Shown one piece after another: positions 5,424 to 30,537 of a stretch of 64,000 nt of DNA. Origin of the DNA: Nemertoderma westbladi (lineage: Eukaryota > Animalia > Xenacoelomorpha). The position numbers and the translations under genes are program-made. Every line of letters starts with the position of its first letter. The first letter of the stretch is position 1. Where the stretch lies: positions 28,595 to 92,594 of the forward strand of contig JAUCBJ010008877.1 of assembly GCA_032718475.1 (NCBI GenBank). The letters run 5' to 3'. The notes below the pieces were generated by a model. That model was not told the DNA's origin, searched no databases, and worked only from the letters and a program-made list of their open reading frames with translations.

Positions 5424-5613
5424 GGGAATGGAAGTATCGATCACACCCATTGATATAATCCAAGTTTGTTAGACTAATACAAATACTAATATCAACCGCA
5501 GGATGGCGCATGTAAATATATCTACTAATCTCACTTACAGTTTCATTTATATACCACTAGAGAGAAGATAATAAAACAGTTTGTCAGAACCTTTACACCT
5601 TTCCCTCCAACAT

Positions 5614-5625
5614 TGGCGCTGCGAG
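5614..5625 (+). promoter_or_regulatory. tRNA primer-binding site of the Gypsy element (tRNA-Ser-like)
   Basis: TGGCGCTGCGAG lies 1 nt after the LTR end; it resembles the complement of eukaryotic tRNA-Ser 3' ends. Confidence 0.75.
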
Positions 5626-5769
5626 TACAGATTCACATTCACATTTTACATATATTAATTACATAATTTAATTTCAAATTACAATTTGAAATCTTACAAA
5701 TCAAATTAACTTTGATAATTAATTGTGATTGTGTAACTCAAACTCAAATTACGGTACAAACTTACGAGA

Positions 5770-8700
5770 ATGGCAAACGCACCTGCAATGGGAACTAAAT
5801 TTACAAACATTTGCAAGGCATTTAATCCAGATTCAGATAGATGGGACACTTATCTATTAATGTTCAATACAATTCTACGTACAACTACATGGAGAAGAGC
5901 CGATGGAAATTTAATGGAACCGAACGAAATATTACAAGCTGAAACAAACATGTTCATCGCTAATTGTGGTTTACAAACTTTAGATTTACTATCTGATTTG
6001 ATGTTTCCAGCAGACATTTCTAAAGAACCATTCGAAAATTTAGAAAAATCACTTACAAAATATTTCAGAAAAGGTAAATCAAAAGAAGTCGAAAGAAAAC
6101 GATTCATACAAGCGACTCAGACATCGGGAGAAAACATCACGGATTTCGCCAAACGTCTAAGAAATATTTCAAGAAATTGCGAATTTCAAGAAGCATTAGA
6201 TGACCGTTTACGAGAACAACTAATTGCTGGGGTACGAGACGAACATGTTGCAGCAGAACTAATACACGCGAAAGACATTTCATTTTCAGAAGCTTTGATT
6301 ACAGCAAAAAATTATGAAGAGGCATATAAAGTGGCACAATCAGGTAGGAAACCAGAATTTGACACGTTTCGCGTCACTACACAAAGTTCAGGATTTCCGA
6401 AAGATAAATATCGCCATACAAAGGTAAGATCTCCTTCATATAAACCTTACAAATCTACAGAAAATTACAATCAATATTCTATAACATGTTATCGGTGTGG
6501 GAAACAAGGACACAAATCAAACCATTGTCGACTAAATCCTAACATTGTTTGCTCATTTTGAAAAATAAAAGGTCATGTAGAAAAAGCGTGCATTAAAAAA
6601 CAAAAGACTAAAAGTGTTCGCTTTCAGGACAAAAAACCTACATCCCATGCTGTAGACATTGAGAATGTTATGGGAGATAACAATGAAGGAAACAACGATA
6701 ACATATATTTGCAAAGTACGGAAATAAGCGATCCACATACCATAGATAAAGTACAGCTTCCAAAAGTGGATTCGATCGTGTTACAAACACGAATTAATGA
6801 AATATCTCTTACAATGGAATTTGATCCAGGGGCAAAACACAGTGTCATATCATACGAAATATACAAAAACAAATTCAGCAATGAACAATTACATGAATGT
6901 ACATCAAAATTACGAGGATTTTGCAAAGGGATTGCGGAAATACGAGGCGTAATTTATGTTACAGTGAAAATAGAGAATGCGCCAGAATTGATCGCAATGC
7001 CACTTATTGTTGCTGAAAATTGTGAACACATACCACTATTCGGTTTGTATTGGATCAAACGAATGATATTAATGGGTTGCAGCATAGATGACATGATAGA
7101 ACAGGATATTACTAAGGTACACCAAGTGATAAATTCTGAGGGTTACGACAAACGACTACAAAGTTTACTGGAAGAATATCGGGACGTTCTTACAGGCATT
7201 GGCTGTTACAAAGGGCAAGAAACCTGCATTCGTTTAAAAGATGAGAATACGAAACCAAAATTTTTACAGGCCAGAACGGTACCGCAGGCATTCAAGGAAA
7301 AGGTCATTGCTCAGTTAAAGCACGACATAGCAGAGCATAGATTAGTTCCACCTGAGTTAAACGAAAATATAGAATGGGCAACACCCTTGGTGGTAACTCC
7401 AAAGCCAGACGGTTCAGTGAGAATATGTGGGGATTACAAGAGTACAGTTAATCCTTACCTCATAGAAGACCAATTTCCACTCATAACCACTGAAGAGTTA
7501 TCTATGAAATTCCAAGGCAGCAAAATATTTTCAAAATTGGATATGGCAGCCGCATATAATCAGCTTCCCATAGATAAAAACAGTCAAACGTTATTAACAT
7601 TAGCTACACCATTGGGTTTATTGAAACCAACCAGACTACCCTTTGGGATCACCCCTGCTGCTTCGAAATGTTTAAAGGTTGTTAACCGGGTATTACATGA
7701 AACTAAATCAGTAACATATGTTGATGAAATTCTGATAGGATCACCGAATATACAGGAACATTTCGAGACATTACAGTCTGTTTTTGAGGCATGCAAACAA
7801 GCAGGGATAACCTTAGGCCTCAAGAAATGTCAATTCCTGCAAACAGAAATAGAATTCTGTGGCCACATAATAAATGACAAGGGATTTACGGCTGATCCAA
7901 GAAAAGTGACAGCAATACAAGAGTTACAAATACCTTCCACGAAAAAGGAATTACAAAGTGTGATGGGTACAATGAATTATTTACGAAAATACATCCCCAA
8001 ATATGCTGAATTATCCCATCCATTGTATAAATTACTACAAGGCAATACATTTACATGGAATGAGAAAGCTACAAAAAGTTACAACTTACTTAAAACAGCT
8101 ATTGCGCAAGCAACACTTTTACACCATTACAATCCAGATAGGATACCATTAATTATAACAGATGCTTCGGAATATACAGTATCAGCAATACTTGGACAAA
8201 AAGACGAGGAGGGTGAATTTAAACCGATTGCATTCGCATCTGAGAACTTAGATAAAAGACAACAAGCTTATTCTCAGTTAGATAGAGAAGGATTAGCAAT
8301 AATATTTGGTGTACGAAAATTCAAACACTATCTGCTCGGAAGAAAATTCAAATTAATTACAGATAATGCTCCTTTGAAACGGATATTATCACCTTCGAAA
8401 TCATTACCAGTTACAACGATATCACGATTACAACATTGGGCAGTTGAGTTAGCCGCTTACGATTACACAGTTGAGACAGTAAGATCAAACGAGAACATCA
8501 CAGATTCGTTATCACGTCTTACACCACCATCAGTTTCAACATATTACGACGACGATATTGATTTGCAGAGTATAGATTTACAACGTAAACAACTTATTGA
8601 CGACTTTCCTATAAGTAAACAAAATATCAGAGAAGCTACACACACTGATAGTACTTTAGGACATCTAAAGAATGCTATTGAATGTGGAGAAAGTATTCAT

Positions 8701-9912
8701 GGAATCAAAGGAACACCTCAATTACGATTTTACAAATCGATTGAAAATGAATTAGCAGTTAATGAAGGTATAATAACACATGGAACGCGTATTATTATTC
8801 CGGAAATACTACGTACGAAGATTCTAAATGAACTTCATTCAGCTCATATTGGTGAAAAACGCATGATACATCAAGCATCAGAAGTTTGTTGGTGGCCAGG
8901 GATGGCAGAAGATATCAAACTTTACATACAGTCATGCATTGCTTGTCAGCAATTTGCCAATTCGCCATCAAAGACGTACACGCCATTACAAAAGTCAACT
9001 GAACCTTTCCAAAGAGTCCACATAGACTTAGCAGAATTGGAAGGATGTCAGCTATTAGGATTAGTTGATGTTTATTCAGGTTGGAAAGACATACGATTAA
9101 TTAAAACTACAACATCCACTGCAGTAATTTCCCAATTGAAGAATATTCTATCTTTCATTGGAGTACCGGAAATTATATTTACGGATAATGGACCTCAATT
9201 CGTTTCAAATGAGATTGAAACATTCTTTACCAACAATGGAATTACACATTGGACGTCAGCACCATATTCACCATCATCAAATGGAGCAGCTGAACGAATG
9301 GTACAAACGATGAAACAATCGCTCAAGAAACAAGGAAATGATAAACCAATGTACGATCGCATAAGTGACTTTCTATTACAAGATAGAAATTCCATTTACT
9401 CACCTACAGGTTTTACACCAAATGCGACAATATTTAAAGCGCAGATTAAAAACCGATTACAACGATTAATCAACTATCCGGTCAATCCTCACACAGAAAC
9501 AAAAGGAAAATTCGACACGGGCGAAGCTGTGTGGGTAAAGAATTACGCAAAGCAAGGAAGAGGTCAGGTTGTAGAACATTGGTTACCGGGGAAAATTATA
9601 GCTCACCAAGGATCACGAGTGTACAAAGTTCGCATTGGAGATATCGAGTTAAAAAGGAACGTAAATCAGCTACGAAGAAGAAACACCCCGTGGATACATC
9701 AAGAAGAAAGAAGAACACGTCTACAACTTCCTCCATCTACAAATAGACAACCAAGATTAAGTCGATTACAAGAAGGAATGACACATCAACGTCGAGAACG
9801 AGAAAGGGAAGAAATAATACAACCCGTATCGCAGAACACAGATCCTCCACCACGAACTAATACGGTTACAAAAACTTTAAGAAGTGGAAAACAATACACT
9901 ATACATATTTAG
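5770..9912 (+). pseudogene. Gypsy gag-pol: a single frame interrupted by one premature TGA
   Basis: ORFs 5770-6561 and 6670-9912 share a frame. The TGA at 6559-6561 replaces the second Cys of a second knuckle (CSF*KIKGHVEKAC). First knuckle CYRCGKQGHKSNHC; RT WATPLV, RICGDYK, LPFG, YVDE; RNase H TDAS..YSQLDRE; IN H..H..C..C, VHID, TDNGPQF, NGAAER. Confidence 0.92.
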
Positions 9913-10489
9913 ATATATATATTATTAAATAATTACGCGAGATATATTTGCATGAGTGTGTTATACAAACTTAGCGTTACGTTAGTGCAAGTATCATTCA
10001 TTGCGAGGGGGTATTGTTAGACTAATACAAATACTAATATCAACCGCAGGATGGCGCATGTAAATATATCTACTAATCTCACTTACAGTTTCATTTATAT
10101 ACCAATGGAGAGAAGATAATAAAACAGTTTGTCAGAACCTTTACACCTTTCCATCCAACAAAGTTTTTAAGGCAAGTTCTCGAGGGTGGGAACACAGTAG
10201 GAATACCATAGTTGGGGTATCCCAGTAACGTGGTTACCGGGATATTCAGCCATGACCGGGATAATTTTGATAAAATGGTAAGACAGTTTAAGGGATTGCA
10301 AATAACTACACACAATACCAAACAGGATAATTTAAAATCGAAGATTTATTGTAAAATAAATCCCCATCCTATTGTAAAATTGTTTTATACTATAGAACAT
10401 TTATTAGTGAAACTTATTTATCCTATTGTAAAATTTTGGGGTTTTCTCTTTCATCTGATACAGAATTTAATGGATATTTCAAATACTGT

Positions 10490-10700
10490 AATACAGTAAA
10501 ACGGCTTGGCGAGATCTTTTTTAAATCTTGAGTTATCGCTGTCTTTCCGTTTACCAGTTTGTCCGTCAAAATTTAGAAAACAGGCAGACAAACCGTCACA
10601 CAGACATACTGTATTGGATACCACTAAGCACTAAACATTAAAGCCTCCGGAAATGAAATCACCGACCCCAAAAATCCACATATTGATAATTTTAATGAGT
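10490..10700 (-). mobile_element. Interspersed non-autonomous repeat; also at about 11835-12030 and inverted at about 62080-62270
   Basis: ttgagttatcgctgtctttccgt...gaaatgaaatcaccgaccccaaaa is the reverse complement of ttttcggggtcgctgatttcatttc...acagaaaaacagcgataactcgag near 62090-62200. Confidence 0.6.
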
Positions 10701-11099
10701 TGGTATGATGCCATAGTGTCAAACATTACTGACCGATTAACAGACTACAGACTGTCAGGTTTGAGCGCGAAGGTTCAAACTTTAAAACAAATTAGAAAAA
10801 AAATCTCAGAATTACATTTTGCGTTTTTAATTTTTTGAAGATCTTGAAAGATTTTCCAGCACATTTTTGAAAAAATATTTTGCTCAAATATTTTTTACAA
10901 CATAGATATTGACCTACAATGCGAAGTTAGAGCTGTTTAAAAAAAAATCTCATTAGGAGAACCCCCCCCCACCCCACCCCCCCCTCCCCCCACCTAAAAT
11001 CAGCATCCCTGAAAACGTTAATAACCTGAAAATCAATGTATTTATTTGATCAGTTACAAATATATTTCAGTACAAATACAACAATTTTGTTACCGGTAA

Positions 11100-11640
11100 C
11101 TTTACGATTTATGAACAGAATTGTAATGGTTGTTAAGGGAGTCTTGCCGGCTGAATTATGTATGACAGTAACCGCACTTATTTGATATCCTTATGTATAG
11201 AGTCGACATGTTGATTTAGTACGTGTTTGTAACGGAATTCTTTGACAATAAACGCACTTATGTTTGATATCTTTATGTATAGAGTCGACATGTCGGTTTA
11301 GTACGTCTTTTCTAGCAAATGATTTTCCACAATCAAAACAGTTGTACTTGATATCTTTATGAAAGCAGTTCACATGGGTGTTTAGACTTCTTTGCTGACT
11401 GAATTCTTTATTACAATAACCGCACTTATGTTTGATATCTTTATGTATAGAGTCGATATGTAGATTTAGGTAGTGTTTGTAACTGAATTCTTTATTACAA
11501 TAACCGCACTTATATTTGATATCTTTATGTATAGATTCGACATGTCGGTTTAGTACGTCTTTTCTAGCAAATGATTTTCCACAATGAAAACAGTTGTACT
11601 TGATATCTTTATGAAAGTAGTTTACATGGGTGTTTAGACC
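11100..11640 (-). pseudogene. 5'-truncated duplicate of the C2H2 zinc-finger array
   Basis: CxxC..F..L..HxxxxH repeats with KDIK linkers; begins mid-finger at the duplication junction and is frameshifted near its 3' end. Confidence 0.85.
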
Positions 11641-12497
11641 CACAATACCAAACAGGATAATTTAAAATCGAAGATTTATTGTAAAATAAATCCCCATCCT
11701 ATTGTAAAATTGTTTTATACTATAGAACATTTATTAGTGAAACTTATTTATCCTATTGTAAAATTTTCATATTTTGGGGTTTTCTCTTTCATCTGATACA
11801 GAATTTAATGGATATTTCAAATACTGTAATACAGTAAAACGGCTTGGCGAGATCTTTTTTAAATCTTGAGTTATCGCTGTCTTTCCGTTTACCAGTTTGT
11901 CCGTCAAAATTTAGAAAACAGGCAGACAAACCGTCACACAGACATACTGTATTGGATACCACTAAGCACTAAACATTAAAGCCTCCGGAAATGAAATCAC
12001 CGACCCCAAAAATCAACATATTGATAATTTTAATGAGTTGGTATGATGCCATAGTGTCAAACATTACTAACCGATTAACAGACTACAGACTGTCAGGTTT
12101 GAGCGCGAAGGTTCAAACTTTAAAACAAATTAGAAAAAAATCTCAGAATTAAATTTTGCGTTTTTAATTTTTTGAAGATCTTGAAAGATTTTCCAGCACA
12201 TTTTTGAAAAAATATTTTGCTCAAATATTTTTTACAACATAGATATTGACCTACAAAGCGAAGTTTAAAAAAAAATATCATTAGGAGAACCCACCCCACC
12301 CCCCCCCCCCCCCCCAAAATCAGCATCCCTGAAAACGTTAATAACCTGAAAATCAATGTATTTATTTGATCAGTTACAAATATATTTCAGTACAAATACA
12401 ACAATTTTGTTACCGGTAACTTTACGATTTATGAACATAATTGTAATGGTTGTTTAGGCAGTCTTGCCGGCTGAATTATGTATGACAGTAACCGCAC

Positions 12498-13760
12498 TTA
12501 TTTGATATCCTTATGTATAGAGTCGACATGTTGATTTAGTACGTGTTTGTAACGGAATTCTTTATTACAATAACCGCACTTATGTTTGATATCTTTATGT
12601 ATAGAGTCGACATGTCGGTTTAGTACGTGTTTGTAACTGAATTCTTTATTACAATAACCGCACTTATATTTAATATCTTGATGTATAGAGTCGACATGTT
12701 GTTTTAGTTCGGCTTTTGTAGCAAATGATTTTCCACAATCAGAACAGTTGTACTTGATATCTTTATGAAAGTAGTTGACATGGGTGTTTAGATTCCCTTG
12801 CTGACTGAATTCTTTATTACAATAACCGCACTTATGTTTGATATTTTTATGTATAGAGTCGACATGTAGTTTTAGTCCGGCTTTTGAAACAAATGATTTT
12901 CCACAATCGGAGCAGCTATACTTGATGATACCTTTGTGGGCAAAGATAATGTGGGTGTTTAGATCTTCTAGGGGGTTTAATTCTTTATTACAATAATCGC
13001 ATTTATGTTTTATGTCTTTGTGAACGGATTCGATATGTTGATTTAGTTCGGCTGTTCTAGCAAATGATTTTCCACAATGAAAACAGTTGTACTTGATATC
13101 TTTATGTATAGAGTCGACATGTCGTTTTAGTTCGAGATTGTAACTGAATTCTTTATGACAGTAACCGCACTTATGTTTGATATCTTTATGGGTAGCGTCA
13201 ACATGCTTCTTTACATAATTTTTGCGTTTAAACAGTTTCTCACAATAATCGCATTTATACTTATTCTCTACGTCTTTATGAACGGATTCTATATGTCTCT
13301 CTAAAATTCCTTTGTTATTAAATAATTCATTGCAATGCAAACAGGAACTGGTGTCTGAAGAAGATACCAACTTCCCAACAGTTTCATTAGAACTACCGGG
13401 CTCTGTTGTTGCACAACTGATTGTCGCTTCTGTACCTTCAGTTTCAATAGGCCTACCATAAGAACACTCCGCGCTGTCGTTTTCCCGTTTTTCAACAATA
13501 AAAGAATCTTCAGATGGTTCATAAGAAATATCTTCGTCATCTAGTACAGGGACAACATCTACTCTACCGAACAAATTGTTGTGATCTTCGATGGTAGATG
13601 ATCCATATACGCAGTTCTCTTCTTTAACATCAAGAGAATAGGTGATACAGTCTGTTGGTTCTCTCTTTATGATTATAAAGTCTGTTTGTTCTTTCTTTAT
13701 AACTATACCGGCACCAGATAATTTCTCTTTCAATAAATTAGTATGTTTATCCATTATCAA
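12498..13760 (-). CDS. Multi-C2H2 zinc-finger protein (acidic N-terminus, about 9-10 fingers), single ORF
   Basis: 420 aa; 29-aa period CxxC-x12-HxxxxH with HKDIK(H/Y)KC linkers; N-terminal IKKE/IKRE/VKEE motifs. A further, frameshifted finger lies past the stop. Confidence 0.85.
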   Translation of the reverse strand: MIMDKHTNLLKEKLSGAGIVIKKEQTDFIIIKREPTDCITYSLDVKEENCVYGSSTIEDHNNLFGRVDVVPVLDDEDISYEPSEDSFIVEKRENDSAECSYGRPIETEGTEATISCATTEPGSSNETVGKLVSSSDTSSCLHCNELFNNKGILERHIESVHKDVENKYKCDYCEKLFKRKNYVKKHVDATHKDIKHKCGYCHKEFSYNLELKRHVDSIHKDIKYNCFHCGKSFARTAELNQHIESVHKDIKHKCDYCNKELNPLEDLNTHIIFAHKGIIKYSCSDCGKSFVSKAGLKLHVDSIHKNIKHKCGYCNKEFSQQGNLNTHVNYFHKDIKYNCSDCGKSFATKAELKQHVDSIHQDIKYKCGYCNKEFSYKHVLNRHVDSIHKDIKHKCGYCNKEFRYKHVLNQHVDSIHKDIK

Positions 13761-16217
13761 ATCTTCAATAAATATTATTCAATAAATTAAATACAGGTGG
13801 CAGTAGTTTTAGGTATGTCAAGCTCTTCACTAATATAAATTTCATGCGATGTAAATATAATAAATAGATGATATAAGGGCGTTCAAAAGTTGCATGTCGT
13901 GTAACGGAAAAGAGCAGGTTATACAGTACCGCTTTCAAACAACGTCGCATTGGATCCTAGTACAGGATCCAAGTCACTGATTCACTACTGTAGGAAAACT
14001 TTCAATACGTCAATATGCACTATCCGCCTAGAGTAGTAGTTTAAATTAGGGTTGAAACTGACAACCAAACGTAGTATTTGGGAAATTCGCAGGACCGAGC
14101 GATGATGCAAAAACATACAACTTTAGAATGCCAACATCTCGGCAATTTCTTGATAGCATTCAAATGTTTTCACAGAGTTTAGAAATATTACTCACCCACA
14201 TTAAAATAGAAGCAACACCCGGTTTCATTTTTATAAGAATTTTTTTCTACCAGCATGTGACAGGGAAGAGGATACATTGAAACAGAGTCTGGGCTCCAGG
14301 GCCAAATTAGCTAAAGGTAATTAAAAGAGAAACATTATAATTATAAATATGTACCTATCTTAACATTTTTACATCATCCAGCCGATCTCCTTACTCCAGG
14401 TATTGCTTGGTATATTTGCATTTTTCTATACGACAGTTCCTATGTAGCAAACTTCGCCTGCGTTTGAACTTAAGTAATTAACAGTAATTAATTACCGGTA
14501 CCTAATATTTAAACAAAAACTCAAGTTCGCGTAGCTAATTATAAAACTGTAACCTGTAAAGCCCGTCGCTACAGACATTGTCAATACTGCTAACTTTGAA
14601 GGTCGTTTTCACTTGGTTGCTATGGTATTTTCAAAAAACTAAATATGCCATTAAATTCTTCAAATCAAAAATAGTAATCTTCCATAAATTTTAACTCATC
14701 ATATCTACAGATAATCTATAGGAGCTGTTGCTATGGCAGTTTCCCCTGTTGCTATGTTTAAGACTCTCTAAAAAACCAGTTCATCCATTTGGTGAAGTCA
14801 ACCCGATTTGTATATAATGTCCCATATCAGTATTAAACATCAATATGGGCTAGCTGAGTCGTATAAAAACACTTACGGGCCATAGGCTGGAGCCTGTATT
14901 ACATATAGAAACACCTAGATTTATAAACATTGAGGCAGAAAACAATAGTTCGACATATTTTTTCCGACGAAAATACGAAATTAAACATTGTAATATTTCC
15001 GTTGCTATGTTAACCCAAGCGTGATGTTTAAATTTCAAAATAGATAACAATTCAACCAGTGAGTGTGTAGGAGTGTGGAATAATCCAACCGGTGTGGTAT
15101 CGTTAGACCGGAGCCAGATTTTTGCCGGAGCCGGAACCGGACCGGGTAAATTCCAAAAGTACCGGAGCCGGAACCGGATTCGGGTAAGTAATATTAAAGA
15201 AATATATATTGAGGCCTGGTATGACTGTATGACCTACAGGCAGACAGGTACCAGTACCACTGTCATAATAGACTAACATACTAGTTATAATACTGTAATA
15301 GGACCTGGCATGTTGCAGTTAGTCCACTACACAGCTACATTTATTTAGCTTATTTAGTGAGCCAACTTCTGCACTTTCCTGCTTTCTGACTTTGTTTTTA
15401 CTCATAAACCAGTACATTAGTCTGGTAGTTTTATTAGATATTAAACCTAACTGCCTAACAACAGAACAACGATGCAATAGACTGATAGAAGAATGGTTGA
15501 TAGCATCAGCCCAGTCTGCCAGTACTGCAGTAGATCTGTAGATGTAGAGGTATACTAATACCATGAATACTACTGTACTAGGCTAGTGACAGGCAGACAG
15601 GCTACAGGGCTAGACAGAGTTAGTAGGTAGTACAGTATGCAGTACTGTAGGTACTAGTGCAGTAGTGTACTGACTGCCTGTCTTTCAGTCTTTGTACTGT
15701 CTGACTGTTGTAGCCTCAGCCTGGCACCTGGCACCTGGTAGGCCAGTCAGCCAGTACTGAGTACAGCAGTAGGCAGTGTAACTGTACTATGCTGCCCCGG
15801 CCGACCAAATTATTAAGCGCGCCGCAGATTGAAATAATTAAATTTTGAAGAGCGCTGCTCAGCCACGCCAATTGCCAATGCAATTTCAACTTTGAAGGAG
15901 TGTAACCAACCAGTCTGCAAATTTCAGTCAGTCAGTAGTACTGCTGTAGCTGCAGAACTGTCAGACTGTACAGCAGTACTGCAGTAACCATAACCATGCA
16001 ACAGAAAAAAAGAAAGGCGAACGACTGAGCGAAGTGAGCCGAAATTTATAATCAGCTAATACTGTAATAATAATGTAATGTAATTTTTAAGGCAATTCCG
16101 TAATTGTTAAACCACTAAATCGGCGCCGGTTTTATTTTTGGGAGCGCCATGCGCCAAAACCGGCGCGCTTTACGATTTACTGGTATTGGACTGCTACTGC
16201 GGTAGGCTGGCAGGCAT

Positions 16218-17422
16218 TGTAAAAGCTTTTACTGAATTGTCCGGTTATTTTTCCGTATTTTTCCCGTAAAGTACTCTGTAGTTGATTTACCAGGCATAAA
16301 AAGGCCGTGTCCTTGCTGTACTGGTGTTTTAGCGGACATAAGAGCTATTTCTTCTGTATTTGTACTTTAGAGGACATAATCCGTAATTCCGTGACGTAAA
16401 AGCTCTATACTCTTGAAAACAGTGTCGCTACCATGACGACAGCTAGCAGCTGATATTGCCACGTCGACGTTTCTTTGTTTCTCTGTTCTCTCGTTGTTCA
16501 GGTTGACCAATCAGAGCGTTTGTTGTCTTTGTGTTGGAGGTATATACAGAAACTCAGTAGTTCGCAGTGTTATGTTTTTGCCCAGAGCCTAAGAACCGGC
16601 TTTGGCACCTCCGTTTTTCAGTTTTTAGTCTTACACTAGTAGGTTTAATTATAAAGGGCATATATCCTTTAACTCATGGAATCACTGCTAACTGATCATA
16701 CATACTGACTGCTGAAACATTGCAAACTCATAACAATCAGTGTTCAGTTGTTGTTTTATACTGCTATTTACTGTCAGTTCTTCATAATATGGTTGATGAA
16801 TTATTATATTTGGAATAACGATAAATAACCCCGAAACCCAATATTCTTGATATACTGAAGGTAAGAGAGAAAGGTTACCAGTAACGATTGTGACTTATGT
16901 TAAAGTGGTTTGAATTGAATCTAATGTTATTTGATAGACCCTACATGAGTCAGTCTGTGTTCCTTTTATATGTGACTAAAATCAGTGAAGATCGGCAGAT
17001 TAGTGTGCAGTATTGTGCAGCATTGTGTATGAGTGAGTCTGTTAAAGAAGCATTCCTAAAGAATGCGCCATATATGTGAATTATAATTAAGCCATATCGT
17101 TGTGAGTAGTTTAAGCCATAACTCTGTTTATATAGATAAAGCGCCACGTCCTAAAGGAACTGTTAATATTCCCGAAGATAAATAATATTGTCAGAGATTA
17201 TATAATACTGTCAGTCGAATAATACATTAGGCTTACATAGCAACAAAATTAAACCGTCGAACCCAATCTCCCGGGAATATCCAGCGGGTGAATGGTCGCG
17301 CACGGATTGGTTTCGACTAGTGTAGTGAATCAAATACTTGTCATAGGCTAAAAAGCGATTTAATATTTAGAAGACATCTTAATTTGGCGGGTTAAACTGC
17401 CAAAGGTCTAAAAGCGCGAACA
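16218..17422 (+). repeat. 5' LTR of BEL/Pao copy 1 (1205 bp)
   Basis: Direct repeat of 32392-33593. CCAAT near 16508, TATATA near 16541, TCAGT Inr-like motif near 16555. Confidence 0.96.
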
Positions 17423-17434
17423 TTAAAGGATATA
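17423..17434 (+). promoter_or_regulatory. Non-tRNA primer-binding site, complementary to the element's own LTR
   Basis: TTAAAGGATATA abuts the LTR end, has no TGG, and is the exact reverse complement of TATATCCTTTAA at 16661-16672. Confidence 0.7.
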
Positions 17435-17719
17435 GCTTCTTTGTTGCAGTAAGCAATAAAGTTGAAAGTACCGGTCAACCGGTAAACCTGAACCGGTACA
17501 TTCTGTAGGTCAGTAGGCCTAACTGTTCTAACCGGTACTTCCGTATAAGTACACTAGTATTATTCGATTTGATTGTTGTATACCGGTAGGCTGTTTAGGG
17601 GATTAGGGATTGATCACCCCTTATTCCTTTATATGGTTTACTTATTTCTGTCAAGTTTTATTTATTTGTAGGCCAGTATTGAACAGAAGGCGTGTAAGCC
17701 TGATCAGATTGTACAGACG

Positions 17720-18285
17720 ATTTGTAGGCTGAGCTGTTGTCTGATTGCTGTTAAGTCCGAACGGATTGCAGTGTGTGTGTAGATCACCTGTCCGATTAAG
17801 TACGATTAGGCAGTAGGGGCAGTGAACACTGTAAGGTAAACCCCCAACTAAAGAATAAGTCGCACTACTGGGTTAGAGCGCATACTCCCTAATCATTTCG
17901 GAGTCTGTATGTCCTGTAGTTTATTTAGGCTTGAGAGTAGTCTGCCATCGTTTAGTCTGTACTTTGTTTGTGTAAGTCTGTACGGGTAGCGTATAATTTT
18001 ATTTAGATAATTTGTAGGCTGGATAGTTGTCTGGCTGTTATTAGGTCTGAACGGATTGCCGCGTGTGTAGATCATCTGTCCGATTAAGTACGGTTAGGCA
18101 GTAGGGGCAGCGAACGCTGTAAGGTAAACCCCCAACTAAAGAATAAGTCGCACTACTGGGTTAGAGCGCATACTCCCTAATCATTTCGGAGTCTGCATAT
18201 ACCGTAGTTTGTTTAGGCTTGATAGTAGTCTGTCAGTGTTCGGTCTGTATTTTGTTTGAGTAGTTTGTACGCGTAGCGTAATATT
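17720..18285 (+). repeat. Tandem duplication of about 290 bp in the BEL/Pao 5' leader
   Basis: atttgtaggctg...gaacggattgc...gtaaggtaaacccccaactaaagaataagtcgcactactgggttagagcgcatactccc occurs twice (from about 17720 and 18010); single copy in the related element (about 59060-59330). Confidence 0.88.
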
Positions 18286-19616
18286 TATTATTCAGAGTTT
18301 ATGCGATTATTCGCAACATTCATTCCCCAAGTTTGTTCCTACAGTAATTGTGTTTGTTATACATACCGCTATAGTTAAATTAACCCCGGTACTACACGGG
18401 CTGCTCGGCGTAGGTAAAGACTGGTGATTTTGTGCATCGGTCACTCCAGCAGATGCCGTGGTTCTTTTAGCTGTTCAAGTATATTTAACTACTGATTATC
18501 TGTTGTACAAGTACTTGTACCTAATTTAGGGTTTAGTGTACAGTGCTTTCCGAAGTAATTATTGTAGACATTATATTTGTGTTGTAAAGTGGTTGATAGG
18601 CACATTCGATTAGCTCTATTAACTTCTAGGTAGGAACACTCCGTGATACATAACGTAGAACCTATAGCGATACGGCTATAGGTCGTCAGGCGGTGGTATT
18701 TTCCTATCTAGACAACGCAGTGTATTTACTACTACTTATTATTTCAAATACCGTAGTACCCTGTCCGTTGTAATAACCGGTTATCTAACCCTTTGTTAGG
18801 CTGGTTTGTAAACTTCTTGTAAAATTACCCTAAAAATTCGTATTTTGTGTTTTTTTTTTTGTAAATTTTTGTGTTTATTTAGAGATTGTAATCTCAACCC
18901 GAATTGTACGTAATTTGTAGTATTAAGTAACTTAGGTAAATTAGTATTATTTGTTTTAGTGTCCTGTACGTAACACTTCACTGAAAGCGCACCGCTTTGT
19001 GTAGTGATTACTCCCCAGAAATAATAACATTTATTTCAAACATAGACAAAACCCATTAAAACGGGTATAAATACATTATAAATTAAATCTAACGATTTAT
19101 AAATAGTAGGCCTACCATATAACAATTAGGTCTCCATATCAGTTGGACTACTGCTCAAATAACGGTAATAAAGTAAGTAAAGTAACAAAGTAACCCTAAA
19201 GTAACAGAAATTCAATTATTTGAAATAATTGATATACCGGTATTTACGACAGGCCTATTATCTTTATTTCTATAAATCTAGGCTGAAATTATACCGGTAC
19301 TTGTAATTAATTCTATTTCAGAATTATATATCCTACAAACTGTAAGCTGTATACCGGTATTCCAGATAGGCCTATTATATATTTATATATATTTGTGCTA
19401 AAATTATACCGGTATTCTGTGATAAATCTAGTCTGTAATAATACTTATATAGTTATATATACTATAAGTATACCGGTATTCTAATATATTATATATATAT
19501 CACGCTACACTGAGTAGCAGTAACGGTAATTAATTACTAGACTAGCAATTAATACTGAGTTACTAGACTTACTCAGACTGTAATACAGCAGTAGACATTC
19601 AACGGTATACATAGTC

Positions 19617-22600
19617 ATGTCTGATACTAAGCAGAACCTGTCAGACAGTTTATTAGATGTAACCATCTGCGACTCAGATAGAGACGTACAACCATCTGGT
19701 CGTAAATCCAGTTCACCTCCCACTGTGAGGAAGGTCATCCCTCCAGTAGTAATAACAGAACCTAGGCTGGTCCAACATCGTAGGTCTATCATAGGCACTC
19801 GAGCTCAGGTCAAGCGGGACCAAAAGGCAGCGGAACAGCAACAACCCGCTAGTCAAGAATTTATTCCTCAGCGGCCCAGCAGCTCCAGTAGTGAGGATAC
19901 TGTAGAGCTGACACCCGAGAGCGGAGCAGAGAGGACGGATGCGGTTTATACGGATCCCCTTCTCATCCTTCCTGCAGCCGTGCTCGCTGGGTTATTGATC
20001 GCGGTGGAAGACAGTCAACGGTCAACTAGAGATAGCTACGCGGGATACACGAGTGAAGAACTGAAGTCTATTGTCGAGTCGCAATGGAACTTCCCCGGAC
20101 CCGGACTCCCGTTTGATTTATCGGAAGCTGCCTGGGAAGACATACACCGGATGGGAGTAGCCAAGGAAACCATCGATCCAGCTGTGTGGAAGAGGTCCGC
20201 AGCGGGATACGCACAGGGATTCTTCAGCTCTATGGAGCGAATAGAAAAGCAACTTTTTCAACAACCTCAAGGACCTCAAGAGCAGGGATCGCTGCTTTAT
20301 CAAGTAAGAGAATGAGTTCTGCGGATTAGGCTAATCTTATCCGCCTTTGAGGAGGCTTCTAAAAGAAAACAAGACACGTCGTTGCAAGTTGCCGTAAAGA
20401 CTTGGTTTCAACGGGTGAGTCGCCAGGTTCAAGGAGCAGCTCAGTGGAAAGCTCAGTTGGAGGAGCGCTCAACCCATGGAGAATCGACGGAAGCTACTTT
20501 TTCCCAAGTGGAAAGTGAAGCGACGGCAGATAAACCGCATAAGAAGGATGCCATTGATATCTATCTGTCAGACTATCAGCGTTTTTTGGGAGATGAAGAG
20601 TTGAGGAGAAGGTTAGAGGGACTTAGCCCTAATAGCGAAGGAGCCAAACTAGTGTTAGATGCGATTGATGTGGATAGGTTAGCGGCGAACCAAGCTAAAT
20701 TCGATGAACAACTCCGCATCGCTAGAGAACAAGAAGAACAAGTAAAGAAAAAACGTATAGAAGATAGAAAGACAACGGCAGTGGCAGCAGCAGTGGCAGC
20801 GGCAGAAGCCGAAAGAAAAGCGGCACTGGCAATGGCAGAGGCAGCGGCAGAAACCGAAAGAAAAGCGGCACTGGCAATGGCAGAGGCAGCGGCAGAAACC
20901 GAAAGAAAAGCGGCAGAAACCGAAAGAAAAGCGGCACTGGCAATAGCAGAGGCAGCGGCAGAAACCGAAAGAAAAGCGGCACTGGCAATAGCAGAGGCAG
21001 TGGTAGAAGCCGAACGGAGAGCATCTGAAGAGACAACCCAACTAGAGTTGGAAATTCTTCAAGAGAAGCAAGACAACTTCAATAAACAGTTAACAGCGAG
21101 CAATATGCAAATGATGAGTCGATCTACTCCCAAGAGACAGGGGTATACATCATCTGAGGAAGGCGATACCACCGACACTGAAGGCGGAAGAAATCGATCT
21201 CGCCTAAGTAGACGTAAAAGAACATTCCACCGGCAGAAATTGCCTGATTTGCCTCCAGCTGTTAGAAGGCAACTAAATAACACCAAAGTAGGTAGTACAG
21301 AACCCACAGACCAAATAATTACAATAGAGAGACTCCCTACTATAGTAGATGAGCCTGAAATAATTAGGCCTGTTCTTGAAATCACCCCTTCGGTGATAGA
21401 CATACCTGTGCTCCCTGAGACTACCTCTAAATTCCCTTTGCATAGCACTAAGCTACCTGTGCCCCGTAGAACTGCCCCGGATACAGTTCAGGTCCTGGAC
21501 CCCGAGCGAATTATTCATAATTTGTCGCCCGTTGTCCCTCGTCCGCCCGCTACGACGTTGGCGGATCCTGTTTCGGCGGTTGATTGGGTAGACGAGAGAC
21601 GGCGGGGGATGGATATTCTCCTCGGAGAGATGAAGGAGAACCGGAGACTCTCCTCCCAACAGGTCCGAGAGTTGGAAGGGACTGTCCAACATTTAAAGGG
21701 AACAGTGAGGGAAAGCAAGTTAGAGTTGCAAGAAGTGCAGCAAAATATCGCGCTAGAGCGCGATAAATTAGTAAATTTACAAAAGGGTATACCACCACCC
21801 CCTGTAACAATGTGTCAACCCGTTAGGTCTGAAGTATCTCATGCGCAAGGTGTGGAGCCTATACGCATTTATACTGCTAGCGAAGTAGAAACTCCTATAG
21901 TGAACCCTATTAAGGGTAATTATAGACCTGTTTGTAATGATATTCCCTATGGAACTGATCATAATCCGAGGAATTTATATACCGATACCTCGATATTAAA
22001 TAGCACGATGGCCCAAGAAAGTTTTACGCGTCAAATGGCTAGAACCGAAGCCCGGCAAGCGGTAAAGGTTGGAGAGATCGTCAAGTTCAATGGAGATGAG
22101 ATGAAGTGGTTACCTTTTAATGAATATTACAAAGATAACATACAGAACTCTGTACTATCTAATGGAGAAAAACTTAGATACCTCATCGAGTGCTTGGAAG
22201 GATCTCCCAAGTTAATGGCGTTAAAGTTTATTGGACATCCAGACGGATTAAGACAAGTTTGGGATACACTAAACATCAGGTATGGTAATAGGAATAATAT
22301 CGCTGGGTACTTGTATGCCAAGTTAGTAGCGCCCCGAAAGTTTATTAGTAGCGGAATTATCGAGTTTTCCGATGAGATCCAGGAGATCTGCAGACAATTA
22401 GATTGGCTAGGTAAGTCTCATGAGTATCAGAACACTATGGTTATTAGAGCAGTGGCTTCTACTTTACCTAAAGGTGGAGTAGGTACACGCTGGGATAAGA
22501 AAGTGTTATATATGATGGAACAACAACGGCGAGACCCTACCATGGCTGATCTCATGTCATTCCTGGATGGAGAAGTGAAATTACAGCTCCTGAAACTGTC

Positions 22601-25600
22601 TAGGGAGAAAACACCGGAAAACAAGGTAAGTGAAAAACCCGTCTCTAGAAGAAAAATAACCCCAGTATGTTATACCGATGACGGCGAAAGCCAGACTTCA
22701 CAAGGAGAAGATAGCGGGAAGGACACGGATAGATCTTATTACGTGAATAAAATGCCTAAAGATCAGGTAAGTAAATTCAAGTCTCGAACAAATGACAGGA
22801 GAGAACAAGTAAGAAAAACTCCTCCCACGTCTCCCAAGAGAATTCAGGTGAGAAAGCCCGAAGAAAAGGCAAGTGTACACAATGTGACTCAGAATAAGGT
22901 AAGTAACATCAAACCAAAATGTGCGCTGTGTGACGGGACCCACTATTTGAATAGGTGTGATGAATTTCTAAAGAAATCATTAACGGAGAGACGCGAAGTC
23001 ATGTGGGATAAGCGGTTATGTTATAATTGCCTCAGACAAGGACACCAACGGCGAACCTGTTTCTCTGACATAAGGTGTGCTAAGTGTGGTGCGAAACATC
23101 ATATCTTGTTGCACGCTGAATTCGATCGAAATAGTCCGAATCAGGTAAGTGATTCCGAGCTACATGTCCAATTCAGTGATGTGAACGACACTGATCAATC
23201 TGAGATGGAAGGATTCTATACAGACGAGTTCTCTGACGAAAACGAATCCTGTTACATGATAAATACCGTAGTGTATCGAGCACTCACATATGAGAAAGAT
23301 ACAGAGAACGACTTTACTCTAACTACTTCTGAACGACAACCACCTTGGAAAGAGACATCCTCCAATGTAGGGATCCGAGAGTTTCCTGTGGTGCAGGTAA
23401 GGGTTCACGGACCTAAGAGGAGTTATGTAGTGAACGCCCTCCTGGACTCCGGCAGCACAGGAACATTCATCGATAAAGAGTTAGCCGAAGATATATTTGC
23501 TGGACAACCCAAGTTCCAAACTAAGCTCAACATGTCAGGCATTATGCAAGTTTGGAAATCCACAATAACAGCTGATTATTATGTCGGAGCGTTGTCCACC
23601 CCCCAGGACGAACTAGGAGAACACAGCATAAGGTCAGTGAAAATGGTGGCTATAAAGAACTTCGCTACTACTCAAGCAGACCTTTATAATTGGGACGAGG
23701 ATGAGAGCATCCAACATCTTAACATACCTCGATTTCAGACTGATTATCCTGGAGTGCAAATACTCATCGGCCAAAACGCGCATGAGGCGCTGGAGACGTT
23801 AGAGAAACGGCCTGCTCAACCGCAGCCCCTGCAGACCTATGCGGTAAGAACTAGAGTAGGTTGGTACTTTACTGGCCCTTCCCGTAGAACACTCAGAGAA
23901 AGACTACCGCCAGAGAGAGTCTACAAGGTGAGTGAATGGGAAGATGATGCTAGTGAGGGAGACGATTCAACTGAGGGAATTCCATACTCCTCAGATAACG
24001 ACGATGTTCACCAGCTTTTTGATGAGGAGAATACCATCGATCTCCTTAAGGAAAACGAGGCTTGGCAAAATCAAGTTAACTTATGTCAACTTCTCTATCC
24101 ATCTGAACGAGAAGCTTATAACGACGAGTTAAATGACGTCATTGAGCGTCATAATGCCAAGATTAGGGATGAACATGCTGTACGATTCTTTACGCAAGAG
24201 GCGGTAGAGCCCAATTCCTACGATAAAGCCTTGTCGGTGGAAGAGGAAAGGGCCAAGCAGATCCAAGAGACAACTACATGTTTCCTCAAAGATCAAGGTA
24301 GGTATGAAGTCGGTTTACCTTTCCGCAAGAAAGAACCGAAGTTCATCAATAACAGACCTTTGGCGGAAAAAAGAATCGCGCAACTCCATCGACGCCTTAC
24401 GGCTAATTCTTCAGCGAAAGCCATGTATCAAACACAGCTAGAAAAATTTATTAATAAGGGATACGCGGAGAGAGTACCGGAAGAAACACCTGTGACTGAA
24501 AGAACGTATTATTTAACTCACCATTACGTTCCTAAACCCGGTAAACCCAATGAAGTGAGAGTAGTGTTTGATGGCTCCGCTCTTTACATGGGTCAATCCC
24601 TTAACTCTGAATTGTTACCCGGACCCAACTTACTTCAATCTTTGTTGGGAATTCTTTTAAGATTGAGACAATATTCGATTGCTTTCGCCTCCGATATAGA
24701 AGGTATGTTCTTGCAAGTCAAAGTGTTGGATAGGGATCGAGATAGCTTACGATTTCTATGGTGGCCCGAAGGAGACCTCAACCAGAAACCGGTGGAGTAC
24801 TGGATGACCATCCAGGCCTTTGGGATAATCTCAAGCCCTTCCAACGCCTGTTCGGTAGTGCGTACTACTGCAGAGGACAACCGAGAGGCATTCTCTAAGG
24901 AAGTGATCGACAACATCAAGAAAGATATATACATGGACGACAATCTGAAGTCCCTCCCATCAGTTGAGGAAGCCATTGAGGTCGCTAAGGGAACGGTAGA
25001 GTGCTTAAAAAGAGGTGGATTTCGATTAACCAAATTCACCAGCAACTCCCGTGAGTTTCTGGAGTCGATCCCTGCGGAAGATCGCGGAGCGAAAGATCTT
25101 GATTTGATCAAAGATGATCTGCCAGAAACCAAGACACTCGGCTTGAAATGGGACACAGAGAGAGATATCCTGTTTTTCCAACTAAAACAGCGAGATAATC
25201 CTGTTCGAACCAAACGGATTTGCTTAAGTATACTGAGCACTTATTTCGATCCATTGGGATTTATTAGCCCAGTTATATTGATTGCTCGAAGTTTGGTACA
25301 ACAAATGTGGCTTGAAAACCACTCATGGGACGATCCACTTAAGGGGGAATTACTGAAGCAGTGGATGAAATGGGAAGATTCTCTACCGGCTATCGAGGAG
25401 TTTATAATTTCCCGTTCATATTTTGGTCATGTTCTCCCTACGTATTCCTATCAACTCCATGTGTTTGGAGACGCCAGCGATATGGGAATCGGTATAGTAG
25501 CCTACCTAAGAGTGGAAACTCCGGATGGAATCAAAGTCGCCTTGGTTACTTCTAAGGCATTAATCAACAACAAGTTGAAAGTTCCTCGAGCGGAGTTAAA

Positions 25601-27815
25601 GGCGGCTCTATACGCTACAGGCATCGGCTGGAATGTAACCGAACAGATTGACTATCCATTAGAGAAAACTGTCTATTGGACCGACGCTTTACTCGTGTTA
25701 GAGTATATAACCAATGAAGTCTGTCAGTTCAGCGTCTTCGTTACCAACAGAGTAGCCATCATACTTAGTCGCACGACGATGGACCAATGGAGACATTGCC
25801 CCGGAACGATTAATCCAGCAGACATCGCGTCCCGAGGAGCGACTCCAAAGGAATTGGTAAATACTCCTGAATGGTTAGGTGGACCCGACTTTCTCTACCG
25901 AGAAGAAGAAGAATGGCCACCCCATCTCACAACAGCAGAGATCAGACAAGCCAAGGGAGCGGAGAAAGTTAAACCCAAAACTCGAGCGAGTAAATCGAAG
26001 TTGTTTAAACCTGCGGTTGATCTATCTGTATTATTTACTTCCGGAGATGATGCTTTGGATCAGAAACCCACCGCCACGACCCCAGAAGTCTTGGAAATCC
26101 GTGACAAGGATTGGAAATCTGGAATACCAGATATCTCGCAAGGACTCTCACCTCTCTTGCAGAGAGCGATACGTCACTACAGTTCCTGGAATCGGCTCTG
26201 TAAAGCTGTTACCTATTTGAAACGATGTTTTCATCATCGTTACTCCGGAACAAAGACCAATAGTGATGATGCTCCATCAACATCTGCACGAGTCCATGTT
26301 ATTAAAGATCTTCCTCAATACAAGATACCCGACAGGTTTCTAAAAGAAAAGATCAGTTACCAGGAGCATGATGAAACCAACAAACAAATGCTGAGACTCC
26401 TACAATGCTATGAGGATTCCGATAAGTATTTCCTGTTGTTAAGAAATCCGCAGATGCGCTTAAGGGATCGCTTCTCTAGTACCATGATAGATGGGTTAAT
26501 ACGTGTTGGAGGTAGATTAACAAACGCCCCATTATCCTTTGACACTAAGTTTCCCATACTTATTAGAAATCTTGACATACAAATCAAGATAATTGTAGAT
26601 GTTCATAGCAAACTGTACCATGCGGGTAGAGAACGAGTTCTGAGCGAAATTCGAACTCGCTACTATTTTTATAAACCCCGTAGGGCTCTGAACCAAGTTC
26701 TTAGGAACTGCATACCCTGTAGGAAAGCATTCAGTAGGCCTTTGACACAGCGAGAGGCAGAATTACCTAGGGAAAGAGTAAGCTTCTATGAACCACCCTT
26801 TACTAATACCGGTGTGGATTTATTTGGCCCTATTGAAGTATATCGTGCCCGGACTATAGTCAAGAGATGGTGTGTCATCTTCATTTGTATGACTTGTAGA
26901 GCTATCCATCTCGATATGGTAAACGATCTATCCACCAACAGCTTCGTGTTGAGTTTACGACGACAGATCGCTCGCTTCGGAACCAGTAACACGATGAGAT
27001 CGGATAAGGGAACGAACTTCATTGGCGCCAACAACGAAATTCAAGCTTACGTAAAGGACTGGAATAAAAGACAGGTGGACGATCAGCTAAGGATAACAGC
27101 GTCTAGCTGGACCTTCAACGCCGCCGACGCCCCTTGGTGGGGAGGAAGTTGGGAGAGATTGATTAGGAGCGTGAAGACTGCGTTCCACTTTATTGTGCCT
27201 TGTCGCGCTTATCTCACCGACGAACTATTGCGGACGTTAATGGAGGAAATCGCCGCCTATCTCAACGAAAGACCGCTTATGCCAGTCTCTTCAAATCCTG
27301 ATTCCCTGGAAGCGCTAACACCCGCGCACTTTCTACTGAAGAAACCCGTAGCCATGCTCCCGCAATCGGAGATCACAGACGGAGACGAGTACTGCCGTCG
27401 AACCTGGCAACTTATGCAGTTGCTATCCCGTCGTTTCGCTGACCATTTTGAGAAACATTACCTGCCCACTCTACAACTTCGAACTAAGTGGTTTGCGCAG
27501 CAAGAAAACGTCAGCGCTGGAGACATGGTGCTTATTGTGGACCCCGATCTCCCACGTAAGCGATGGCAAACAGGACGTATCATCGAGACTTATATCTCGA
27601 GCGATGGTTTGGTGCGATCAGTAGAGCTCGTCGTCATGCGGCGGAACTTTAAGAAACCAGGGATAGTCTTTGAGACTCAACAGCTCAATCGCCCAGTGGG
27701 TCGTTTATGTTTACTGGAAAGAGACAGAGAGCTCTCCGGAAACTATGGAAGGCAAGAAACTCTTCCCACGACCACTTCCCTAATACAACCGACATCTAGG
27801 GACTCCCCAACTTAA
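19617..27815 (+). CDS. BEL/Pao gag-pol polyprotein (about 2730 codons) with one in-frame TGA at 20313-20315
   Basis: ORFs 19617-20315 and 20382-27815 are in frame, and copy 2 has CGA at the stop. DUF1759-like KFNGDEMKW; triple knuckle CALC..H..C / CYNC..GH..C / CAKC..HH..LH; protease ALLDSGS; RT IYMDD; RNase H LHVFGDAS, PRAELKAA; IN GVDLFGP, SDKGTNF, GGSWER. Confidence 0.95.
20790..21020 (+). repeat. Coding minisatellite (45-bp unit) encoding AAAETERKAALA(M/I)AE repeats in gag
   Basis: gcagcggcagaaaccgaaagaaaagcggcactggcaat repeated about 4-5 times. Confidence 0.9.
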
Positions 27816-29306
27816 TATCGTTCGGAGTGGGCGTGTGACTCTATTATTTTATATTATTTTATTATTTTTACATTTATGTATGTATTACTATGTAATTTTA
27901 TTATAATCGTTTTATTTAATTTAGTAGAATATTATTTAGCGATTATTTTGTAGAATAGTGCAATATATTCGTGTTTATTACGTACGTAATTACTTATATT
28001 ATATTTAATGAGACGGCGAAGAAATAATTATTTTCTCTTTCCTTACTGTCCGTGTTATATTATAAATACGTAACTACAGTAAGATGAAATGTCCGTACTT
28101 ATTAAAGTACAATAAAGCCACTACTATATTTTAGTATTATTGGTAGGCAGAGTATTAGGAATGCAAAGTTCAGATCCTCGTGTCTCGGCTAAACCAAGCT
28201 CTGGGTAGACCTTGGAAACGACTTGCCTCTTCACACTGACATTGCTTCGTGCGATATTGCTCTCATACCGTTAACGTCCCCAGACAAGTTCTGGAATAAA
28301 TCGGTGCCCATCTCAAATATTAATTAGTTAATATTTACAAATCAAATAAGTCAAAATCTGTAAAATTCAGATCCTTCAACAATTCTAGTCAATTAAGATA
28401 TCGTAGCATTTACCGATATTCTTAAAGAGACAATTTTCTTAGAATTAAGGATCTTGTGTCCCTAGACATGTTCTAGAATCCAAATATGCCCATTTAATTA
28501 TCAAATAATAAAATTTCAGGGAATAAATTTAAATTCATGTCTTTTAATGAATTTAATAAATTGCTATTTTACGCGATTTATAACATTCCCAAAAATTCCA
28601 TTAATTAATAGATCAAGGGAGTGGAGATTTATATTATTATGCGTATGCGTGTACGAAAGTCTCCCAAATATAGTTAATAGCCGATAAAATTCGTAAAGTC
28701 ATGTATAAACAGGACATTGACTATTAAAGAATCCCTATTAAATAACATCCCAGATCTGTATGCATTGGAATTACTCTAATTCTACCGCTAGCTTTGCATA
28801 ATGTCACCATAGCAACAACCACGCTAGAATTAGAATTGAGTTAAACAAACAATAGAAAGCTTGTCCCATTGAATAACATAGGGAATAAATAGCGCACTAC
28901 TAGTATCCAAGGATACATAATAATACAGTGACATTCTGGAAAGCATTGACTAACGGACAAATGGCCCGAATGTGTGTAGTTGTGACCAGTTGTGTGGTAT
29001 TTGTGAGTTTATAGGTGAATGTTACTGCTAAAGTGTGTTTACAGTAGCTAGTCGCAATCGTAAAATAACCTAACTCTCCAAGGAATACCTGAAGTACATC
29101 TAAGCCTTTGGGACGGACAGTGGAGTGACTTGTGTCGGTTATCGTTGTAGTTGTACGGCTACGTCGTTGGCGAAAGTACAGCTACAGCGGTACATTGGCG
29201 CTGAGAATCTCTTACTGTCCGGGGGCAAGGGAGAAATAGGCAGCGACGCCCGCTCGCCTAACGATATATAAACTCATTATAATATTGGTGAACTTGTATA
29301 GCAGAT

Positions 29307-29705
29307 ATGACTGAATTAATAGAAGATGATCTTGGTATCAGGGAGAGATATACTCTACCTTTACAAGCGTTTGTCGATAGCTTGATACGCGGCGACGCTG
29401 ATCCAACTATTACGGAGGACGATGGTCGTTATATCGAACCGCCAATGTCCCAGGAGCAACTTACGCGTGAATTGGATTATAGGAAGTTCACTGCTCGCTA
29501 CACGCATCGTAATGGTACGTATATGGACTTCTTGACCACTGGTCATCCTATTGATTTACACGACACCGACGACGTAGACACCGAAAGGGAAATGGTTTTG
29601 TTTAAATATCATGCCCAGCGGAGTCGAAACGATAAATCGAGAATGGAACACGAGAACTCTATTCGAAATCAGCTCGAAAGAAAGAACGTGGAAGAAGGCT
29701 TGTAA
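29307..29705 (+). CDS. Small accessory ORF (132 aa) of the BEL/Pao 3' region, function unknown
   Basis: Homologues start at the same ATG on the minus strand at 41432 and 37492, with synonymous differences (ACT/ACG, GAA/GAG, TTA/TTG). Confidence 0.65.
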   Translation: MTELIEDDLGIRERYTLPLQAFVDSLIRGDADPTITEDDGRYIEPPMSQEQLTRELDYRKFTARYTHRNGTYMDFLTTGHPIDLHDTDDVDTEREMVLFKYHAQRSRNDKSRMEHENSIRNQLERKNVEEGL

Positions 29706-30537
29706 AAACAAATATAGGCGAACCACTGGAGAAGAGACATATGTTAATGTCCAGGGTCCATAATGTGAATAGTTTTCCCCGGGGCACGGGTGCTCGCGGG
29801 CGGTCTCCTTCGGGAGGCTGTAAATTTCTCTTCCTTCATCGTTTTCCTGTAATTGTTGTGATCAGTGTCACAATTAAAAGACAAGAATGAATGATGACGT
29901 GATGGAAAACTTGTCCATTGTGGTGTCTTATGGATACTACCCTATATCTTCCTCCTCTTTACTCCCTTCATCGATCGACCAATCATAGTGGTATCGTGGT
30001 ATGGATCATACCTCATCCTAATAAATCTCCTCACCTTCTCTTCCCAACGCGCTCGGAGCTTCGGGAAACGAATACTAAACCTCCCAGCCCTTACTGTTCA
30101 TCTGGATGCTAATATTGGTGTCCGCACCTCCTGTCCATGTCATATTCTGTTGATATTTATGATATCAACTTCCACCCTCTCGTTCTTGATTAGGTAATCA
30201 AACACTTCCTAATTTCCTCAAGTCCACAACCGTGAAACAAGGACTGAAAGGACAAGCGGATAGTTTGTGAACAACTGGTACCATTATGTGTCATAAATCT
30301 GGTTGTTCACCTCCCTTAATGATTGGGGATATAAATCTTATGTAGAACAACTGAGGCAAACATATCTTTGAGCTGATGTTTACCTCATCACACTGGGGAT
30401 AAATTCGGTTGGGGATAGTACTCGAATGTTACAATCCTCCTACTGAGATCTTATTTCTGAATATTTCAGAATGCGAAATAGTTTTTCCTCTGCTCTACCA
30501 TCGCTGTCGGAGAACATATTAGGCATACAATGGGAAC

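Follow-up and report, generated by a model that had tools for sequence, protein, structure and literature searches.

A covarying self-complementary primer-binding site in a giant BEL/Pao retrotransposon, a candidate case of priming without tRNA

The primer-binding site (PBS) position of a giant BEL/Pao element from Nemertoderma westbladi is complementary to a segment of the element's own long terminal repeat (LTR), and between two diverged copies in the same 64,000-nucleotide stretch of DNA (hereafter, the window) both partners of this pairing have changed together; the covarying self-complementary PBS is thereby confirmed. In copy 1, the 12 nt at 17423–17434 of the plus strand (TTAAAGGATATA) adjoin the terminal CA of the 5′ LTR directly (offset 0) and are the exact reverse complement of the plus-strand LTR segment at 16661–16672, as the original prediction had it, with no gap. 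The 3′ end of the segment pairs with the first base behind the LTR, which fits the geometry proposed for priming. TGG, as needed for pairing with tRNA CCA, is absent from the first 40 nt after the 5′ LTR in both copies, in agreement with the earlier claim that the site is not of the tRNA type. Within the window the segment 12-mer occurs only at 16661–16672 and in the copy 1 3′ LTR. The duplex is AT-rich (−11.6 kcal/mol), and approximately 750 nt separate segment and PBS. A match of at least 12 nt at any offset from 0 to 5 was obtained in 11 of 20,000 simulated LTRs (dinucleotide Markov); the corresponding rate in an empirical null drawn from 17,900 window positions was 0.9%, a value inflated because the window is rich in long inverted repeats.

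Copy 1 occupies 17,376 bp (∼17.4 kb; 16218–33593, plus strand) and is bounded by 1.2-kb LTRs detected by self-BLAST. The 5′ LTR (16218–17422; 1205 bp, TGT...ACA), delimited by self-BLAST and the target duplication, differs from the 3′ LTR (32392–33593; 1202 bp, with a second copy of the segment at 32832–32843) by 3 gap bases and zero substitutions, and the 5-bp target duplication GGCAT is present at 16213–16217 and 33594–33598. Features of the 5′ LTR, all on the plus strand, include a CCAAT-type motif of putative function (16507–16514) found in the LTRs of both copies; a TATA-like motif (ATTATAAA, 16648–16655) with a putative promoter role; the candidate self-primer segment; and, downstream of the segment, a predicted splice-donor-like GTAAGA (AAG/GTAAG; 16861–16866) kept in both copies. 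The gag-pol frame extends from 19584 to 27815 (plus strand; first ATG at 19617) and contains one in-frame stop at 20313–20315, where the copy 2 frame is open. Ahead of the 3′ LTR lies an extra plus-strand ORF of 596 aa (30523–32313), whose product has a basic tail and two CCHC-like knuckles; the ORF gave no Atlas match and only a sub-threshold zinc-knuckle match, no family or env likeness was found for it, and no counterpart was found in copy 2. This ORF might make use of the conserved splice donor at 16861. A short purine-rich tract immediately before the 3′ LTR (32384–32391, plus strand) is the likely polypurine tract. The ∼2.7 kb between pol and the extra ORF (27816–30522) hold short ORFs only, and the first 1.9 kb of this interval are 72–87% alike between the copies over much of their length.

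Assignment of copy 1 to BEL/Pao follows from its protein domains, Cys-His box, and motif set. The gag-pol frame encodes DUF1759, a triple Cys-His box in Gag (boxes at residues 869, 902, and 921 of the long frame), an LLDSG protease, a YMDD reverse transcriptase (RT), Peptidase_A17, an integrase, and DUF5641; Pfam matches in this frame are DUF1759, Peptidase_A17, Integrase_H2C2, and DUF5641, and the LLDSG, YMDD, and DAS motifs occur in order, giving the PR-RT-RH-IN arrangement of a Pao-type polyprotein. The TG...CA LTR ends and short target duplication are likewise those of BEL/Pao elements. A triple Cys-His box in Gag is described as a BEL/Pao feature in the accessible text of PMC554778, although the third box of copy 1 lacks the Suzu spacing given there. 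The ICTV profile of the Belpaoviridae (PMC8742986) lists an 18-nt PBS for tRNA-Arg or tRNA-Gly and a genome of 4.2–10 kb. Copy 1 resembles this profile in its domain set and order, triple Cys-His box, TG...CA LTRs, and 5-bp duplication, but departs from it in having no 18-nt tRNA PBS, a length of 17,376 bp rather than 4.2–10 kb, and an extra ORF. No chromodomain match was found in copy 1 and its polyprotein is not that of a Ty3/gypsy chromovirus; judged from its predicted domains, which are of the Pao type instead, copy 1 is not a member of the Tf1/sushi group. Among the best 120 database proteins listed (7974 candidates scored), the nearest show 31–44% identity over the RT region, and those with names are mostly from marine invertebrates.

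Copy 2 lies on the minus strand (61670–37017), is broken by insertions, carries a 5-bp duplication on both sides, and shares 71–91% identity with copy 1 over protein pieces. Its 5′ LTR (59594–61670, minus strand) measures 2077 bp including two insertions, while the 3′ LTR is a remnant (37017–37317, minus strand) comprising the last ∼300 nt, 94% identical to its own 5′ LTR and without the segment region. One insertion, a 540-bp miniature element (MITE; 60768–61307) bounded by 30-bp terminal inverted repeats and flanked by TTA at each end, which we take to be PIF/Harbinger-like, interrupts the segment. The second (60332–59910) consists of nested inverted and direct repeats, one end of which happens to have 9 nt in common with the copy 1 PBS. 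With the MITE in place and no editing, the 10 nt of the candidate self-primer visible to its left (61317–61308, minus strand) are the exact complement of positions 2–11 behind the LTR, within a PBS position (ATAATAGATTT, 59583–59593, minus strand) that again lacks TGG. Position 1 is paired as well if one TTA represents the duplication made by the insertion; the original prediction of an exact 11-nt complement is thus borne out for 10 nt as they stand and reaches the 11th pair only by way of this putative duplication. An 11-mer at a fixed position is expected by chance with a probability of about 1.6e-6. The PBSs of copies 1 and 2 differ at positions 1, 5, 6, and 10 of 11 and the LTR is matched each time, the match at position 1 depending on the presumed TTA duplication, so that the predicted joint change of both partners holds for 4 of 11 positions as read from these two PBS-LTR pairs of the family. 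The ATTATAA motif of copy 2 is at 61324–61330 (minus strand), and the equal 6-nt spacing claimed for the two copies is correct when the segments are measured from their 5′ ends; in the 3′-end register relevant to priming, the copies differ by 1 nt. The copy 1 pair was also considered as the TTAA-flanked ends of a DNA transposon and rejected, as the pair is enclosed by LTRs and target duplication and the letters of copy 2 differ.

A Ty3/gypsy element in the same window (5466–10160, plus strand; 147-bp repeats 98% alike) has an ordinary TGG-type PBS and serves as an internal control. No tRNA gene was found in the window and no Rfam match in the element. At 1–4841 (plus strand) the window contains a third BEL/Pao element, distantly related (27% protein identity) and represented by its 3′ part, with a probable LTR at 3969–4841 bearing 7-bp inverted ends; the 5′ end of this element lies outside the window. 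The remaining annotated features are a tandemly duplicated C2H2 zinc-finger array (10308–13778, minus strand) and one 364-aa frame of FAM86/Methyltransf_16 (EEF2KMT-like) coding sequence (62796–63890, plus strand).

Further versions of the PBS were detected in public sequencing runs. Of nine runs listed, six contain part of the stretch, all as assembled contigs; four were compared over 17372–17470, and run X1 may be the source of the window itself. The copy 1 PBS is the main form in these contigs. A>C at 17427 is present in 26 contigs of X1 and 15 of X3 (about 7–9% of summed depth), and A>T at 17434 in 14 and 10 contigs of the same runs (about 4–5%). Among the 17 of 40 loose contig ends listed, at least two further PBS versions each deviate from copy 1 at 5 of 12 positions, one in a single X5 contig and the other in single contigs of X1 and X3; each keeps the LTR end or the leader, and neither begins with TGG. 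Together with the two copies, the runs thus give at least four PBS versions in one family, a drift which argues against a fixed host tRNA primer. No variant fell in the segment or PBS among the 40 of 145 variants listed, which we do not take as conservation. In an X5 contig aligned over 16622–16785, 20 of 21 substitutions lie at 16679–16740 (with 10 gap letters unplaced), a hint that suggests conservation of the TATA-plus-segment stretch in a sister subfamily. A degenerate LTR-end pattern gave 0 matches in metagenome, viral, and prokaryote-genome contigs.

The signature extends to other BEL/Pao elements. A search with an alignment of the RT region and 20 homologues yielded 79 loci in metagenome contigs (the best 80 of 474 confirmed) and 7 in genome contigs; a first search of viral contigs produced a single weak locus and a second produced none. 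From these 86 loci, 16 in which both LTR copies end at the same CA were picked by eye, and removal of L048, a duplicate of L050, left 15 readable relatives, the remaining loci having no flanking repeat, an LTR start only, or an unclear end. In 13 of the 15, at about 40% RT identity, the PBS is complementary to the element's own LTR over 10–15 nt, each self-match being reached by at most 1 of 200 shuffles. For 12 of the 15, the PBS, starting 0–4 nt behind the LTR, is complementary to the joint of a predicted GT...AG LTR intron of 71–451 nt; one (L029, 7879–7888) has a contiguous 10-nt match. The other two (L056 and L077) have TGG sites and no self-match (140/200 and 200/200 shuffles). L003/L006 and L082/L083 are close kin, and the matches therefore represent fewer than 13 independent lineages. 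A weaker set of 16 further loci with a scan-chosen LTR end, including 3 repeats of families already counted, reached at least 11 nt in 11 cases, as compared to 2 of 48 simulations. A contiguous, intron-less match is carried by two unrelated relatives, L029 (10 nt) and L060 (12 nt, in the 5′ LTR), so that the one-piece form recurs among the sampled elements. Seven BEL/Pao contigs (L081–L087), of which L082 and L083 carry a junction-type PBS match, come from bacterial metagenome-assembled genomes and are probably host contamination. In a quick tree of 84 rows (L087 skipped as too short; L001, L042, and L048 left out), the PBS types are widely spread, and the window RT sits on a long, unsure branch (1.71), weakly supported beside the two TGG-type elements; none of the named reference elements (Sinbad, Suzu, BEL, Pao, Tas, Dan, and Flow) is among the rows. 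The original prediction of a trait evolved by this family alone is probably too narrow, in that 13 of 15 relatives share the signature, mostly across a predicted intron junction, and a shared origin of the self-complementary PBS is plausible from these comparisons. A splice-built primer was rejected for the copy 1/copy 2 family itself, in which the best junction match is 9 nt as compared to 12 contiguous nt.

The self-priming of Tf1 offers a mechanistic model for this arrangement. Given the presumed start, the genomic transcript would begin at or close to the LTR segment of 11–12 nt, which would pair in the RNA with its complement immediately after the 5′ LTR. A cut on the 3′ side of the segment, as made by RNase H in Tf1, would leave a 3′ OH that could then prime minus-strand DNA synthesis in place of a tRNA. 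In most relatives the primer would be joined by splicing of the predicted LTR intron, and in the copy 1/copy 2 family it would be available in one piece. When LTR elements replicate, the new PBS is made by plus-strand copying of the primer; such copying would account for rapid, matched change of PBS and LTR. Overall, we consider Tf1-like self-priming without tRNA likely, and place moderate confidence in the more specific proposal that the self-primer derives from the 11–12-nt LTR segment at the RNA 5′ end. Readings without any self-priming are, taken together, unlikely.

Where transcription begins bears directly on the source of the primer. No TATA-like motif other than ATTATAA occurs within 100 nt, and in both copies the first T of its TATA precedes the segment by 11 nt. 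The usual spacing from TATA box to start is approximately 30 nt, which from ATTATAA would put the start near 16680, behind the segment; a working TATA box at this motif would therefore leave the segment upstream of the main start. In both copies the TATA is followed at 34 nt by TCA(C/T)T, presumably initiator-like. Among 20 relatives, no TATA precedes the primer by 11 nt; one does so by 31 nt, as a 5′-end primer predicts, and one by 89 nt. A likeness to the 11-nt arrangement noted by eye in L072 failed the scan, was not kept in the sister L047, and was rejected. Predicted helix probability was 0.84–0.97 for RNA starts between 16644 and 16665 and 0 for starts at 16560–16640, the latter folded with a different 3′ end; this fragile fold result leans towards an RNA start close to the segment. 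Side helices of the Tf1 type were not above chance in copy 1 (16/200 and 18/200 by energy), where a candidate 8-bp helix joins 17044–17051 with 17435–17442, and were not seen in copy 2 or 13 relatives.

One of several alternative explanations retains self-priming but draws the primer from elsewhere than the 5′ end of the main transcript, namely from the U3 copy at the RNA 3′ end or from a transcript starting further upstream, with ATTATAA as a working promoter element. The TATA-like motif at an equal short distance in both copies, the CCAAT motif upstream, and TCA(C/T)T downstream are all consistent with this reading, and Tf2 uses alternative start sites, RNA from one of which cannot be reverse transcribed, according to the accessible text of PMC5341516. 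Cleavage of the template within U3 would, however, take away the 3′ R on which strand transfer depends, unless another RNA were involved, and the TATA positions in relatives (0 of 20 at 11 nt, one at 31 nt) also speak against it; we regard this source of the primer as unlikely. Also unlikely is the broader proposal that a large part of BEL/Pao self-primes, mostly via a splice-built primer, and that in the giant family the primer originates in the interval separating TATA box and start site, with the U3 terminus of the RNA, or else a separate upstream transcript, as its source, as no described self-priming element is known to do.

The pairing might instead be structural or regulatory, acting in packaging, dimerisation, or a translation switch, with a host RNA such as a tRNA fragment as the true primer. 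Half-tRNA primers are indeed known in Copia lineages (PMC6317226, accessible text), yet the at least four PBS versions in one family would need several different host RNAs, in both copies the LTR boundary is precisely where the helix ends, and in relatives it starts 0–4 nt behind the LTR and bridges a predicted splice junction; this explanation appears distinctly improbable. Inverted copies can arise by reverse transcription, and recurrent template switching or conversion could in this way deposit an LTR segment at the PBS position as a by-product with no role in priming. Such a by-product would leave the element with no primer site, yet the copy 1 LTRs differ by 3 gap bases only and the family is abundant in public runs; the junction-only matches of relatives would also go unexplained, making this origin very improbable. 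Coincidence between two AT-rich sequences, in a window where inverted repeats are common enough to give the empirical null described above, is largely refuted by the recurrence of the match at the same position with different letters in copy 2 (about 1e-6 for the second) and by the self-matches of 13 of 15 relatives.

The nearest known parallels are Ty3/gypsy chromoviruses, namely Tf1 and Tf2 of Schizosaccharomyces pombe, Tj1, Tosmo1–3, and the Tf1/sushi group including Tcn1. In these elements, as in copy 1, an LTR segment is complementary over 11–12 nt to a PBS that is not of the tRNA type and adjoins the 5′ LTR (PMC7175516, PMC4600332, and bioRxiv 2022.12.06.519325, in their accessible portions), and the complementarity of approximately 11 nt that typifies Tf1 was found here. 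The Tf1 primer consists of the 11 nt with which the RNA begins, its cleavage by RNase H has been proven, and two side helices are also required; copy 1 differs in belonging to BEL/Pao, its RNA start near the segment is presumed, and its candidate side helices do not exceed chance. The accessible text of PMC6317226 records self-priming for Tf1/Sushi and Tcn1 and predicts it for TAR Copia, the latter (a Ty1/copia lineage including Houba and Osr-1) from an LTR match of at least 10 nt located 0–5 nt behind the LTR. The copy 1 match is of this kind, and the TAR lineage comprises plant Copia elements for which self-priming is likewise a prediction only. In the accessible open literature we found no account of self-priming in BEL/Pao, although one may exist in subscription journals, Repbase, or GyDB; such priming is not described in the accessible parts of PMC3601003, PMC4600332, PMC6934838, PMC8220671, PMC5341516, PMC3286476, and PMC3587641, and the terms PBS and tRNA do not occur in the main text of PMC3118150 and PMC554778. 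A search for a possible precedent in Cer7 of C. elegans listed nothing relevant. The reference description of the Belpaoviridae gives their replication as host-tRNA-primed and poorly understood (PMC8742986).

If the signature means the same in BEL/Pao as in Tf1, self-priming would occur in a third LTR superfamily and would seemingly be common among the relatives sampled. Self-primed elements would be independent of tRNA supply and would escape silencing by tRNA fragments directed at the PBS, and annotation tools that depend on the PBS would miss them. The series of PBS versions in the copy 1/copy 2 family provides natural material for a sharp test of covariation.
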